Below are positions 1-58,573 of a stretch of 64,000 nt of DNA, one piece after another. Within the stretch, counting starts at the first letter, position 1. Each line of letters starts with the position of its first letter. The stretch is from Podarcis liolepis (Eukaryota): NCBI GenBank assembly GCA_965112155.1, contig OZ218099.1; one strand, written 5' to 3'. The notes beneath the pieces are model-generated. The model made no database searches. It saw only the letters and a program-made list of their open reading frames with translations, and was not told the origin of the DNA. The position numbers and the translations under genes were made by a program.

Positions 1-399
1 TCCTGGTTCATTTTGAAGCTGTATTTTGGTCTTACTTCCTTTGTCTTTGGCTTCTACCTCTCAAATATTGGCACGGCAGTCTGTTGGGAAGGATAGCACT
101 TCACTACTTATTTCAACTCTCAACAGGAAGGCTGGTGTAGGGAGCTTGGGAGTGTTCCTCAGTCCTCAATCCCTTCCAACTCGTCTAAGTTCTGTTATTT
201 GATCCAGCTGCTCACAGGGGTTCCTAGCACCAAACGACCAAAGTGGAGAGAGGAGCGGGGAGGTAGAATGCAGCCATCCCTCTCTTACTTGCTCAGTTAT
301 CTCAGAATCTTGACGCACCAAACGTTATCACAATCCCAACTCCCATCAGCCCCCAGCCAACATGGCCAGCGGTCAGAGTTGAAGTTGAACCATATCTCG

Positions 400-16608: not shown

Positions 16609-17098
16609 AAAATAAAAAAATTCCTTCCAGTAGCACCTTAAAGACCAACTAAGTTAGTTCTTGGTATAAGCTTTCGTGTGCATGCACACTTCTTCAGATA
16701 CACTGAAACAGAAGTTGCCAGATCCTTCTATATAGTGAGAAGGTGGGGAGGGGTATTACTCAGAAGGGTGGTGGGAATGGGTGATTGGCAGATAGCTGAG
16801 ATGAGCCTGTTGACGACTCTTAACGACTGCAATAGGTCTTACAGGAAAAGGCAAGGGGTGAGAAGGTGAAAAATGGCTTAGTCATGTATAATGAGATAAG
16901 AATCCAATGTCTTTGTTCAGACCAGGTCTCTCCATGGTTTTAAGTTTGGTAATGAGTTGCAATTCAGCAGCTTCTCTTTCCAGTCTATTTCTGAAATTCC
17001 TTTGTAGTAAAACAGCTACTTTGAGATCTTGTATAGAATGTCCTGGGAGATTGAAGTGTTCTCCTACTGGTTTCTCTGTTTTGGCTACCTATCTGTAA
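16609..17098 (-). mobile_element. 5'-truncated Penelope-like retroelement, family A
   Basis: Minus-strand frame 17082-16882 KTEKPVGEHFNLPGHSIQDLKVAVL...EREAAELQLITKLKTMERPGLNKD...* matches a GIY-YIG endonuclease C-terminus. Followed by a pLTR with hammerhead core. 14-bp TSD CTCTAACCAGAGTA at 16595-16608 and 17099-17112. Confidence 0.9.
16664..16701 (-). ncRNA. Minimal hammerhead ribozyme motif (PLE-associated)
   Basis: GUAU-CUGAAGA-A-GUGUGCAUGCACAC-GAAA-GC-UU-AUAC: core, stem II and a 4-bp stem I are present. Confidence 0.75.
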
Positions 17099-17392
17099 CT
17101 CTAACCAGAGTAGCCAGGGAGAGAGGCATTGCTTTCCACCAGAAAGAACACTTTTACTAGCATTTGCTGTGTCACAAATGGATCTGAGAGTTCAAAGTGT
17201 TTTATAAAGAGGAAAGCGGACCAAGAAGGGGGTGGGGACGCACAGAGATTAGGATTGGAGTGTCGTTGAGGCCACCATTAAGAAAACCTGCATTAAACTT
17301 GACTCGATCAGAGTGAATTCTTTCAAGAAAAAGGAAGCACAATAAATGGTAAATAATAGTTGGAACCTCTCTTCTTTTTTTGCCTCCTCTAG

Positions 17393-27100: not shown

Positions 27101-27236
27101 CATTATGTCCACAGTTCACCATTAAACTACAAGTGTTATTCCAGTCCTACTTACAGATAGGTAGCCGTGTTGGTCTGCCATAGTCAAAATAAAAAAAATC
27201 CAGTAGCACCTTTAAGACCAACTAAGTTAGTTCTTG

Positions 27237-27274
27237 GTATGAGCTTTCGTGTGCAAGCACACTTCTTCAGATAC
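27237..27274 (-). ncRNA. Minimal hammerhead ribozyme motif (mirror arm)
   Basis: Exact reverse complement of 27337-27374. Confidence 0.75.
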
Positions 27275-27336
27275 ACTGAAACAGAAGTTGCCAGATCCTT
27301 CTATATAGTGAAGGATCTGGCAACTTCTGTTTCAGT

Positions 27337-27374
27337 GTATCTGAAGAAGTGTGCTTGCACACGAAAGCTCATAC
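27337..27374 (+). ncRNA. Minimal hammerhead ribozyme motif, sense to ARSG pre-mRNA
   Basis: GUAU CUGAAGA A GUGUGC-UU-GCACAC GAAA GC UC|AUAC; predicted cleavage after 27370; palindromic AGCU stem III. Confidence 0.78.
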
Positions 27375-30300
27375 CAAGAACTAACTTAGTTGGTCTTAAA
27401 GGTGCTACTGGAAGGATTTTTTTTATCCAGTCCTACTAACAGTTTTAACCGTTAACAATGGTTTTTAAGGTAAATTAAAAATTTTCCCCATTCCTTATTA
27501 AAATTCTGGTCTTCCTGATTTCTGATTCTTCCAGTCATTGCCAATTTGGCATAATCCATCAACTTAAACTGCCATTCTTCTCTTGTAGGGACTTTATCTT
27601 CTTTCCATCTCTGGGCCAATAACATCCGCACAGCCGTGCTCACATATATAAATAGTCTTTCCCCTTCATTTTTCAGGTCATTGTGATTGAAGAGAGGAAC
27701 TTGCAGTTTGTTTATTTATTGTTCTTTTTAAAGTGGGGTCCCTTTGAATGAAAAATGAATTATTTTTTAAGGAAAGGGTGATAGGCTGTTTATGAACGTT
27801 GACTTTTCAGGGGTAATATTAGTGTTTCTTTTTAAGTTACACATTGGGGGAATATGGCAACAAAGCGAAGTCTGTGGATCTCTCATGACTGGCAGCTTGT
27901 CTCCCTTGTTCATGAAATCAGGGAAGTAATGTAGGTTGTGCTAGGAACAACTAAGTTTTGAATTCGTGTATAGGAAATGGAAGGGAATTCAGGCTACAGG
28001 GTATAAACGACTCTGCTTGGAAATGGCCAATTTATTTATTTTTTTTAATTGTAATATGTGCCGTGACTTGTAAATATTCATGGCATGTATTTGTCATATA
28101 TGCGGTGGAAGACTTGATACGATGCAAGATGGAAATGATGGTAAAGATATATTTCATGCAGGGCACCGCGAGTCCGTTTGGGAACTGTGAGTTTGTTTGT
28201 TCCCAACATCCAAGAGTTTATACACGCACAAATACGCAAATGCACACGCACTAGCCGTAATCTTGTTCCTCTTCAACATTTGTCATCCCGCCCTTTTCCC
28301 TTTGGAAGGCCCTGAGGAAGAGCAGGCCTTGTTAGAGGAGACAAATATAGCTGTAAACAAGAAAACAGGACATGTTCTCTGGCAATTTAAAAATAACCTA
28401 GCCTAGGTTAGAATTGCCCAGGCTTCCCCCAAATTCTGCGTGGGAATGTTGAAGCCACCTGGAATCTGCAAAGTGATTTCCTTTTATGTAGTTAAAGCTG
28501 CAATCCTGTACACACTTGCCTGGATCCAGCATCCGTGCATACCCAGAATCGGCTCCAGTGTGTCCCGCCAGCTCACTGGGTTTTTAAGGGTTTTTTTTTT
28601 TGCAAAAACAAGTTTCAAATATCAACATATCAGACTGAATAATCAATACAAATTAAGATGACATAAAGAGAGTAAAAACGACTTCCCTCCACCTGTATGT
28701 GACTTTTCCTTTTAAATGTTACTTTTCTCGTTGTGTTCTTATACAGTGGTACCTCGTTTTGAGTCTGAAATACATAGATAATTATGAAATGATTGTAAAG
28801 TTTAATAGGTTAACTGTTTATATTTGGACAACTTTTCTGCTGTTCTTTATTGGAAGGAGAAAAATAATCATTTCCTTAATAACAATTTAAACAATTTTTC
28901 TAACTAAAGCAATAACATTATAGCATATGTATCCATGTTTGTTAACTGATGTGGTTAAACTTAAAAAAACCAAAAACACCTTAGACTGAGTTTTAGCACA
29001 CATGAAAAACTGAAAACAAATCCTTATTTCCTGATGAATAGCCTTTGGACTATAATGTAACTTAAATAGAAAACTATCTTTAGAAAGAATTTGCCTCCAA
29101 AAACATTTTATTTTAAAAATCTTATTTAAATAAAAAAAATCTGATTTTTAATTTTTTTAAAAAAAGATAAATAAATTTGACTTTTATCCACCCTGTTTCC
29201 AGACAAGATTGACTCCATACATCTTACTTAGGAGGGGAAAAAAGCCATACCACATGACATAAGTTTGAACTCATCTATTGTTTACACCTACACAATAATT
29301 ACCCCCCCCCAAAAACCCACACACACTTCAATTATTTGGAAGAGCCAATTTAACACATTGGAAAAAGAGAGAGATTTGCACCTGCAAAGATGCATGTATG
29401 GGTTTAAAAATATCGACTATACTTTAAATGGTATGAACAGGTTTGTTGAGAAGTGATGTGTGAAGAAGTTCATTAGCAATGCAGCGTTGGGGTCAAGGCC
29501 GTTTTGAGAAGGAAATTGCAACGGAAGGCGGATAGCGCCCAAGCTCTGCTTCATCCTGTTGCAACAAAACAGTTGGCGGTGTCGAGAGAAGCCGTTGTCT
29601 GCATATCACTTCAGGGAAATAAAAAGCTAATGCAATTAGGAACTAGGTTGTGGGAGAGGAAATGACTGCTGTCAGCTTTTTTGAAGCCAGTCACTCAGGG
29701 CGGAGCCTTGTGCTGTGCACATAGGCCTCAAATCTCCAAAGAGGCACTTAGCAACAGGGGAGAAAAAAGTAAACAGAAGAAACCTAGGATGTGTCAACAG
29801 AAAATTTGATTATCTGCTCATAACAGGAAAGAGCAACGCCTCTGCCAAAGCTTGGGGTTCTTCCCCCTCTCCCAATTTTCTGCAGATGCTAGAATCGAAG
29901 TGCAGTGGTTGGGATGGTCAGAGGCACCTTTTGAGTAAATTCACTGGCTGCTTTGCATCCCATATCTTAGTCTGCAAATGCAGAAGCCAACCATACATTC
30001 GTTGCGCTCTTCAGAAATTCGTACTGAAATGGTGGATGAGGCTGCTGTTTAAAGAAACTGGAGGGTTTGAGAATGGACAATTAGGTGAGAGATTGGGGTG
30101 GGAGTTTGGTCACATTGATGTGGTGCTTGGGAATCGCTGAGCTCAAATTTTTTTTTTCTCATTTGACTGGCTTAGATGGAGGCATTATACCTCCCTCTCG
30201 CCGCCATCTCCATTACCCAGATACAGGCCATTTTAAACCATTAAGACTTCCTCGTGGGGTGTCGCCTGCACTAATAAGAGCATGGTTCTAAAAGGACTGC

Positions 30301-55992: not shown

Positions 55993-56840
55993 TACATTAA
56001 ACTTAGGTTAGCAGCAACTGCCTCCCTGCCAGTAAACCCAATGGTTTTCCTGATCCATATTCCATGCAGGATGAATATTTCTTCACTGCACTGAGGTGAT
56101 GCTAAATTTCAGTACTGTGTGTAGCAGCTCTTGGTTACATATATGATTATCCCAGTGTGAAGATATAGGAGGATTTATGGGGGTGGTGGGTGGGAGAGAT
56201 TCTTTCTATCTTTTGCTCCCATCATCTCGGCTGACAGCATGTACCTCCCACATGAAGCTAGTTGCCCTGGGGAAAGGAGGAGAACCCAGCTGGCTGTATT
56301 GTGAAAAGGGTGGCATTGCTGGCTGGGCTCCAGCGTTTTCATGGAACAGTCGCTAAGCATCTGTTGGGAAAGACTTTATCTCAACTGTGCATATTTAACA
56401 CTACGAGACCAATTATTTCTTTGGAATCGTGGGCAATTGGTGCTTCTAAAGACCAGCAGCAACCGCAGGGTTGGGTAGGGTGGACAGGAAGGAGAGGTGA
56501 ATCCTTTGGCTCCCCAGCGGCTAGCAAAATCATTGTGGCACGAACGCTTGTGGGCGGGAGCCTCCTTCAGTGCACCTGGATGTCTGAGAAAGGAAGGAAG
56601 GAAGCATATTGATAAATGACGAACTGCCGTGCATGAATAGTTGACGTCAGAGGTTTTGCATGCACTGCCTTTGAGAATATGGGACCCACTAGAAGTGGTG
56701 AGTAATGAACAGGCGGAAATCAGGATATATGGACTTAGCTGAGAAGCTGCTCTGTGAACAAAGGTTGCCCCCACAACTGAGGGTTCAAAGCCACTTTCAG
56801 GATCACGTATTGAGAGTTAAGTTGCAGAGGACTGTTCCTT

Positions 56841-56980
56841 TGGAATCCTTTCCCTACCCAAGGAGGCTCACCTGAGGCTTTTAGCTGTCCATTTGTTGTC
56901 TCTTGTATTTTGGAATCCTTTCCCTACCCAAGGAGGCTCACCTGAGGCTTTTAGCTGTCCATTTGTTGTCTCTTGTATTT
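56841..56980 (+). repeat. Exact 70-bp tandem duplication
   Basis: 56841-56910 equals 56911-56980. Confidence 0.95.
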
Positions 56981-57022
56981 TCGATTTCCTAATTGGTGTT
57001 TTATTTCTGTTTGTCTCTACTC

Positions 57023-57071
<49 letters not shown>

Positions 57072-57076
<5 letters not shown>

Positions 57077-57347
57077 GGTTTTGGTGTCTTCGGGTGTCTT
57101 CCCGTGTAAGAGTTGGGGTGTCTAGGCGACGTTTCGACGAGGTCTCACTCGTCATCTTCAGGCTGGTGCTTTCGGCTTCTTGTTACTGGAACAGAGCTCT
57201 GTTCCAGTAACAAGAAGCCGAAAGCACCAGCCTGAAGATGACGAGTGAGACCTCGTCGAAACGTCGCCTAGACACCCCAACTCTTACACGGGAAGACACC
57301 CGAAGACACCAAAACCTGCATTCCTGTACCCGTGAAAATCTACGAAA

Positions 57348-57349
<2 letters not shown>
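57072..57349. mobile_element. Penelope-like element, family B, 250-bp perfect palindrome within (TA)n
   Basis: 57072-57321 is a spacer-less perfect palindrome. 28-nt asymmetric tail TCCTGTACCCGTGAAAATCTACGAAAGC. Each arm carries CTGAAGA-T-GACGAG..CTCGTC-GAAAC-GTC. Flanked by (TA)n at 57027-57072 and 57350-57389. Confidence 0.8.
57230..57267 (+). ncRNA. Minimal hammerhead-like motif, family B (mirror copy on - strand)
   Basis: CUGAAGA 57232-57238, 6-bp stem II, GAAA 57258-57261, palindromic ACGU stem III, GUC triplet ending at 57265. Local stem I is only 2 bp. Confidence 0.6.
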
Positions 57350-57393
<44 letters not shown>

Positions 57394-58068
57394 AGTGCAG
57401 ACTCATAGAGAAAGCTGATGTTCCCAGCATTCGCTTCTATGCTTTTCCTTCTCTGTGTCACTGCAAATCTTAAAACTCATCCTTCTTTTTCTGCCTGTGA
57501 TTCCTCTGCATTTACACACCTGGGTTCTCAACCTGTGCAGAGCCAACTCTTTTTCCTAGACCTCTAGCTAGGGAGCAGGCGCTCATTTTCTCTTCCATTG
57601 AGCGGAAAATGCTTATGAATTTCCCATGCCTCAAGGGGTGGAGCTGCTGCCTTTCCACCAAAATCTGCCGTGCCAAACTGCTTCGCTTAACGGCTTCGTT
57701 TGATGACGAGTGCCCGCAGTGACTTTATGATTTTCCTGCTCATTAAAAAGTAGGTCAGTAAAGTAGGCCGCCCAAATGAATAAGGAAGAAATTGTGCCAT
57801 CGTTTTGCGGCGACGTGCTTTGGCAGAGCTCTATAGATTGAGCGGGGGCTGTTTTGTTGTGTGCGTAGGTGCCGTTATCTAAGAGTTCAGGTTCGCTGCA
57901 TGTGACTTTTTGGGAAGGTGTATCATCAGGTTATGTAGCTAGAAGGGAAACAGAAAGCAGGCTTTAACTATCAAGGCGTCATCCAAGATACTGGCTTTCA
58001 CTTGCCCTTTCACTTGGTTGATTGTGCAAAAAATGCATTAATTTAACTAAGGTAAGGTGGCACTGATG

Positions 58069-58573
58069 CATAGCTGTCAACTTACAGATTTGAAAATAAG
58101 GGACCAGCAGCCTCGAAAATAAGGGATCAGCAACCAAAATAAGGGATTTTGCAAACACAAGTATGTTCAACTTCTGAGCCCCTCCGAGCCAAAGTCAGAA
58201 AGCCCAGCCAGCAGCCAAACAAAGCCTCAAGCGGTGGTTCCCACAGCGCAGCAACCCGGCAAAGGGGATGCAGCAAGGAAAACACCATCACCTCTCCGCT
58301 GGGAAACGCTGAGCAAGGGCGAGTCCCCAGGCAACGCGACCGATTTGATCGGCACAAGGCATGCAATCTCCCCCACCCCAGTCGTTCTTAGACTCCTTTT
58401 TGGGTGAGCAACGCAGCCAAGCAACACAGTTGGAGCCTCCCTCCTCCCTGGCCGGCAGGGAGGAAGGGAGAGGAGCTGCTTCCTTTGAAACCCGGGAAAT
58501 TTAAGGGACATCAGCGGGACATGCGCTGAGATAAGGGACTTTCCCGCCAAATAAGGGACGGTTGACAGCTATG
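58069..58573. mobile_element. hAT non-autonomous element
   Basis: Perfect TIR CATAGCTGTCAAC; 8-bp TSD CACTGATG/CACCGATG; subterminal ATAAGGGA repeats. Confidence 0.9.

Follow-up and report, generated by a model that had tools for sequence, protein, structure and literature searches.

A perfect palindrome in a (TA)n tract of Podarcis liolepis as the probable shortest common insertion product of a young Poseidon family

A loop-less palindrome with a one-sided tail, embedded in a (TA)n tract of the lizard Podarcis liolepis, is best explained as the shortest common insertion product of a young, (TA)n-inserting Poseidon family, with the front end of one element RNA likely copied onto both sides of the cut. 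We give this reading a probability of about 0.6. The locus was analysed within a window of 64,000 nt (contig OZ218099.1 of assembly GCA_965112155.1), and copy counts were obtained by pattern searches of the genome.

The two arms are perfect, 125 bp each, and meet without a spacer at GAG/CTC, the palindromic part of the right arm ending at 57321 (Table 1). A 28-nt tail follows on the right side only, and the flanking (TA)n tracts are the sole TA-dinucleotide arrays in the window's 30 TRF rows. A first-pass annotation had described this layout, and all of it was confirmed from the letters. Its view of the insert as CpG-rich, unmutated and young also held: CpG observed/expected is 0.95 in the 278-bp insert, compared to 0.36 in the window, and positions 1–123 of the window arm carry the majority letter among the 109 arms sampled. 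Its cruciform of about 360 bp has to be reduced to a clean cruciform of 125 bp per arm, as the added TA pairing needs a 28-nt one-sided bulge. Among contigs from four runs, one of organism B has 111 unaligned letters to the left of 57413 (57322–57399 being outside the alignment), which would fit an empty site; the contigs of two runs stop near the tract, and the fourth run has no coverage of the flank.

Table 1. Features of the palindromic insert and its flanks (window positions).
Feature	Position	Strand	Remarks
Left (TA)n tract	57027..57073	.	Target site; probably includes the target duplication; final AT common with the short-arm end
Short arm, untailed	57072..57196	-	pLTR positions 1–125 of the Poseidon element; ends at the putative upstream priming site (ATG+84)
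GC at centre	57196..57197	.	2-nt microhomology common to both arms, joining them
Long arm	57197..57349	+	pLTR positions 1–153; ends at the putative downstream priming site (ATG+112)
Hammerhead core, minimal type-I	57232..57265	+	Cleavage predicted after 57265; helix III is ACGU without a loop, helix I has 2 bp
Hammerhead core, mirror copy on short arm	57128..57161	-	
ORF start (first 37 codons of the 906-aa RT/GIY-YIG ORF)	57238..57348	+	ATG overlaps the hammerhead
28-nt one-sided tail	57322..57349	+	Stretch between the two putative priming sites; PMC11167929 for the Anolis homologue
Right (TA)20 tract	57350..57389	.	

The family to which the arms belong is large. Its 35-nt hammerhead core has 5,763 exact copies in the genome (control, 0), and there are 3,673 tailed ends. 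Two samples were used: set 1, all 44 clusters from the first 100 core matches listed, and set 2, 28 regions holding every listed tailed end between 21 and 32 Mb of C1, from which L095/L096 (one multimer) was dropped. Three of the 44 set 1 loci have full-length open frames of 906 aa with RT plus GIY-YIG at the C terminus. All three frames matched RVT_1 (E about 1e-15) and GIY-YIG (E about 0.001, under the Pfam cut-off) in Pfam; the GIY-YIG motif reads GVY-EIP-C711-KV-C714-PAT-YIG with downstream H residues (CCHH), and DKG is at 282. A PDB search gave weak bacterial RT matches only. The element unit is 2,963 bp, and one copy (L034) has direct pLTRs plus inverted orientation with a one-sided tail. 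The pLTR contains the hammerhead core and helix II, cleavage being predicted; as the ATG overlaps the hammerhead, the long arm in the window holds the start of the ORF. These copies provide the autonomous parent that the first-pass annotation had sought, and they bear out the PLE origin that it had assigned to homologues of the arm.

Protein matches to the ORF were 98% identical in Podarcis muralis and 82% in Vipera latastei, followed by many of 37–62%, including Anolis. The Anolis protein shares 45% identity across 773 aa, and visual comparison matched its N-terminus to the template letters of the Anolis carolinensis Poseidon (PAc) in supplement 1 of PMC11167929. The CX2-5CxxC zinc-finger linker between RT and EN, which marks Neptune/Nematis, has no match in the ORF, and this points to Penelope/Poseidon and away from Neptune. 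On its sequence the family is classed as a young, abundant EN+ PLE of the Penelope/Poseidon clade, close to PAc. The Vipera latastei identity, which covers 53% of the ORF, is well above that of Anolis, and horizontal transfer between squamates is possible for such a protein.

Insertion is nearly confined to (TA)n. Of the 109 arms in set 1, 108 have (TA)n at their end, and in set 2 all 64 end in TA, giving 172 of 173 arms over 70 loci; the microsatellite-targeting PLE with inversion and one-sided tail that had been suggested from this locus, and the (TA)n flanks that it predicted for arm copies elsewhere, are thus both found. Genome-wide, TATATATA follows 1,556 of the 1,836 tailed ends on the plus strand, the remainder including internal pLTRs, and only 9 of 151 TA tracts of at least 20 bp in the fetched loci lie away from an arm. 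The element letters are GC/ATTCC at the short end and GC/AAATATC at the long end; the genomic ends read AT... in 79 of 82 short and 58 of 87 long cases, and AAATAT... in 28 of the 87 long cases, so each end overlaps the target by 1–4 nt. In raw RNA reads of other animals TA is joined at the same two element positions. The one impure target site read, L071, has a 12-bp duplication, which together with other sites (limit near 10–12 bp) led us to reject the duplication of about 21 bp suggested by flank lengths. A strong (TA)n bias has been reported for Naiad and Neptune PLEs in PMC8557442, where available passages relate it hypothetically to the linker and note that it hides target duplications. 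The present family shares the bias but not the CX2-5CxxC linker hypothesised to mediate it.

Two further features of the TA flanks were observed. Their lengths are bimodal (L031–L074, L077–L094 and L096–L117), the two modes having means of 23 and 46 bp and rising steeply from about 20 and 42 bp, respectively (BIC 1217 vs 1238); the upper mode is weak in set 2. At L032, L039, L058, L060 and L113, for example, repeated insertions, some from different subfamilies, are stacked tail-to-tail in each other's TA flanks.

Arms joined head-to-head almost always comprise one tailed and one untailed arm. This was so for 46 of 47 pairs in set 1 (p = 3e-13 against 0.5) and 29 of 30 in set 2, or 75 of 77 overall; as set 2 was picked by tailed ends, 20 of its 30 pairs would be long plus short at random. 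The exceptions are L069 (short with short) and L097 (long with long), while L053, with two short arms 400 bp apart, is outside the pairing rule; 15 of the 109 set 1 arms are unpaired. Paired arms come from one source: mismatches amount to 26 in 24,386 aligned bases (0.11%) within pairs, compared to 11,751 in 668,093 (1.76%) between loci, although the arms of one pair (L033) disagree at both of the pLTR sites that mark subfamilies. The 5' stop points of paired arms also correlate (rho 0.77 in set 1, 0.82 in set 2). The 5' ends are at most 65 nt apart in 25 of 46 pairs of set 1 and in 20 of 29 of set 2, against permutation means of 6.8 and 5.4, and none of 20,000 permutations reached the observed values. 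Even with both arms beyond -100, the 5' ends are within 65 nt in 11 of 27 pairs (permutation mean 2.4). About 4 in 10 pairs have unrelated stop points.

We propose that the RT-GIY-YIG protein, probably acting as a dimer, cuts each strand of a (TA)n tract, and that each 3' end then primes cDNA, one at pLTR position 153 and the other at 125, where A/ATAT or AT in the RNA could pair briefly with the target. As both cDNAs would be antisense, they could be joined only head-to-head at their 3' ends, by microhomology. At the locus in the window both cDNAs would have been primed in the 5' pLTR, run off the first base of the transcript (G), and annealed via their terminal GC to give the loop-less palindrome and the 28-nt tail. 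The resulting insert has no promoter and no ORF, and so is probably a dead-end copy. The stricter claim, that a dimer nicks both (TA)n strands and copies one RNA molecule from two fixed sites 28 nt apart, with (TA)n found without a zinc-finger linker, we consider an even bet. The available text of PMC11167929 bears on it in both directions. In vitro, PAc cuts and extends both strands, with two start sites bounding the tail; against the model, no difference in start site was seen between the strands, priming is called non-homologous, and the target is not (TA)n. Our literature search, which covered papers outside subscription, found neither the long/short pairing rule nor twin priming for PLEs.

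In the twin priming of L1, both target strands prime cDNA on one RNA and the products are joined by microhomology; the second primer starts upstream, which gives an inversion without duplication. Priming by both strands on one RNA and a microhomology join are likewise proposed here. Unlike in L1, both primers would start within 28 nt, so that one sequence would be copied two times and yield a palindrome.

How far the arms constrain this mechanism depends on what their identity means: one source locus is not one RNA molecule, and identity could also stem from conversion after insertion. A rival for the same family, which we judge unlikely though a serious contender, retains two-strand priming but uses two RNA molecules of one source locus, held by the dimer; alternatively, the short end would arise by EN resolution of a symmetric intermediate, with no second priming site. 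It draws on the fact that arm identity establishes one source rather than one molecule, on the many pairs with unrelated stop points, and on the attribution of the tail to EN-mediated resolution in the accessible part of PMC8557442. Common stops far inside the ORF (for example -762/-762, -676/-676 and -696/-697) are, however, not predicted by two RNAs, and the in vitro start of PAc reverse transcription at both tail boundaries (PMC11167929) also speaks against this rival.

Self-priming, in which one strand folds on itself and is then extended, has been proposed on an antisense template for the inverted junctions of Penelope, Pen2a_Av having palindromic junctions and a TATA box in its pLTR (PMC3846280, as far as available). 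Here, the arm extending further 5' is the untailed one in 27 of 46 pairs in set 1 and 11 of 29 in set 2 (38 of the 75 long-plus-short pairs). Such an arm cannot have templated the tail, which argues against fold-back on one cDNA, since a single cDNA could not supply the tail; a loop-less centre would also be hard to form within one strand. We therefore regard snap-back as improbable, even though it would account for arm identity and close stop points, and several near-centre junctions have short, locally templated insertions when examined by eye.

Junction positions vary continuously between +105 and points beyond -3900. Where arms exceed one unit in length (L034, L041, L095-L096), they require templates that are upstream-started, multimeric or circular. 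In L095-L096 (G000:C1:22,499,500-22,516,900), which is one insertion, each arm has several full 2,962-bp tandem units, arranged head-to-head; this multimer needs a multimeric, circular or re-used template.

Within the continuum there is a clear hot spot. Exactly the same palindrome centre is present at 106 loci in the genome, and patterns of the same width found 220 junctions near position 0 (these 106 being exact), compared to 41 near the site of ribozyme cleavage and 10 in the region upstream of the TATA box. Among 173 arm 5' ends, 18 are at -1..+1, 18 at 2..12 and 4 at -12..-2. A better palindrome, GATC, 4 nt upstream of the centre is used by none of the first 50 junctions listed. In full-length copies a TATA-like box, TATTTATA, starts 30 nt upstream of the central G, from which we infer that this G is the first base of the element transcript. 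RNA reads from four runs gave no clear start at position 0; one run has loose ends there (4 and 6 reads), and coverage is on both strands. None of the listed holders of the sequence is on record as RNA. An excess of A>G in the RNA reads was not taken for editing, because the runs come from other animals and many differences are near 100%, and a cap-derived extra G at the centre was dropped, the extra letters being local templated insertions.

The recurrence of one centre might suggest a master palindrome from which the 278-bp sequence was copied as a non-autonomous mobile unit or ribozyme element in its own right, and 5 of 14 other exact-centre loci are indeed identical to the window's 278 bp, letter for letter. 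However, among 15 such loci fetched, including this one, 12 of which have perfect 125-bp arms, the centre sits on three pLTR haplotypes that also occur in long copies. Both arms change together in 13 of the 15, one locus having a private change in both. The same centre on three sequence backgrounds means that the palindrome forms anew, repeatedly, at insertion. In this sample of 15 the palindromes scatter among the long copies and form no clade; the continuous range of junctions, and a unit without a TATA box, further oppose copying from a master, which we consider very improbable. For the same reason, three haplotypes common with long copies, the locus does not qualify as a non-LTR retrozyme or autonomous mini-element, a tandem or self-propagating HHR unit from one master. 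The palindrome is real, and is neither a chance occurrence nor a fold-back artefact, because it has unlike flanks and a tail on one side only, and because its centre recurs identically at 106 loci; an assembly or read artefact has a negligible probability given the distinct unique flanks and the fact that raw RNA reads from other animals contain element-TA junctions at these same two positions.

The insert is probably intronic in a sulfatase gene, since the plus strand of the window has exon frames resembling those of a sulfatase at 17.4, 19.1, 48.1 and 61.7 kb; Pfam Sulfatase matched two of the four exon-like fragments weakly, under the cut-off. The first-pass placement inside ARSG stands as far as a plus-strand sulfatase gene with exon-like frames is concerned, ARSG being a candidate name for it. 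Elsewhere in the window, family A (27135–27436 and 16612–17100) is another element that bears a hammerhead, its arms inverted and a tail present; it has non-TA surroundings, a target duplication of 10–11 bp (CCAGTCCTAC) and its inversion at a TATA-like palindrome. A perfect 70-bp tandem duplication lies at 56839–56981, 45 bp to the left of the insertion, and a very high-copy repeat begins at 58068–58400, as judged by contig depth in all four runs.

The hammerhead is predicted to be a passenger at the locus, and inert there. Both arms carry the core CUGAAGA-U-helix II (6 bp)-GAAA-C-G-U-C, with ACGU as helix III compared to AGCU in family A, as first described. Helix II is predicted to fold, but helix I has no more than 2 bp, or 3 if a bulge is allowed, compared to 4 bp in family A. 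The cut predicted after 57265 was correctly read from the core. The earlier ribozyme reading was otherwise too strong: the type is minimal and dimer-dependent, and the palindrome is predicted to sequester it. In the predicted fold of the 363-nt region, all 34 core bases are paired to the opposite arm in a long hairpin. A transcript of the locus has one sense ribozyme, and the loop-less ACGU requires a second sense copy; the three helices of an active hammerhead are thus not predicted within one transcript. Rfam gave no family at gathering score in the whole window, and over 56900–57500 no hammerhead family was among the 47 matches up to E = 10. Of the 41 junctions near the ribozyme cut (pLTR position ~70), 8 are centred exactly there by eye, versus 4 and 4 at adjacent 4-nt palindromes, and in 4 further junctions one arm ends at the predicted cut, a weak hint that some templates had self-cleaved. 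HHR-cut RNA as the main template was rejected, as only 2 of 173 arm 5' ends fall at 68–72 versus 18 at -1..+1. Minimal, dimer-type hammerheads of metazoan PLEs have been reported, in reptiles too (PMC4209133). Those described there share with ours a loop-less palindromic helix III, an extra base after A9, a long helix II, opposite-strand pairs 100–700 bp apart and copy numbers in the thousands; here, in contrast, helix I is 2 bp, as in a D. virilis variant, and the core is near-invariant in this young family.

Much of this design is already published. The available parts of PMC8557442 give an inverted 5'-truncated copy with a one-sided 30–40 bp tail as typical of EN+ PLEs, and head-to-head arms, a tail at one end, partial tandems, a pLTR TATA box and palindromes at inverted junctions are all common to our family and the layout in PMC8557442 and PMC3846280. 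The tail here is 28 nt, and the mechanisms in these sources are EN resolution or self-priming on an antisense template. A close parallel is PAc (PMC11167929), which also has a single ORF with RT and C-terminal GIY-YIG, the ATG at the start of hammerhead helix II (the cut lying 28 nt downstream here, 26 in PAc), a tail bounded by two start sites (that of the long end being at ATG+112 here, 111–118 in PAc) and AT-rich targets. It differs in that our target is nearly strictly (TA)n with ends overlapping it, whereas PAc priming is called non-homologous. Inverted insertions, the pairing of long with short ends and a hot spot at the 5' end are not taken up in the main text of PMC11167929, and the available portion of bioRxiv 10.64898/2026.07.22.740005 contains nothing on inversions. 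The tail-plus-inversion design to which the first-pass annotation had drawn attention is the published standard footprint of EN+ PLEs, and minimal hammerheads too are known PLE features. Our additions are modest: the pairing statistics, and the finding that (TA)n is strictly targeted by an element that lacks Neptune's zinc-finger linker.

The locus itself is ordinary. The family bears on how PLEs make inverted ends and one-sided tails, a question called open in PMC8557442 and PMC11167929, and its 75 of 77 long-plus-short pairs, same-source arms, common stops and 5' hot spot discriminate between models and are open to testing with the in vitro system already established. The family also targets (TA)n strictly while belonging to a clade that lacks the linker proposed to give that bias, and a vertebrate genome with at least 106 long loop-less palindromes in TA tracts is a natural set for studying palindrome stability. 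If double priming is correct, it alone would explain the inverted pLTR, the one-sided tail, the common 5' stops and the perfect palindromes at the transcript start, and about 3,500 young insertions in this lizard genome would record it.
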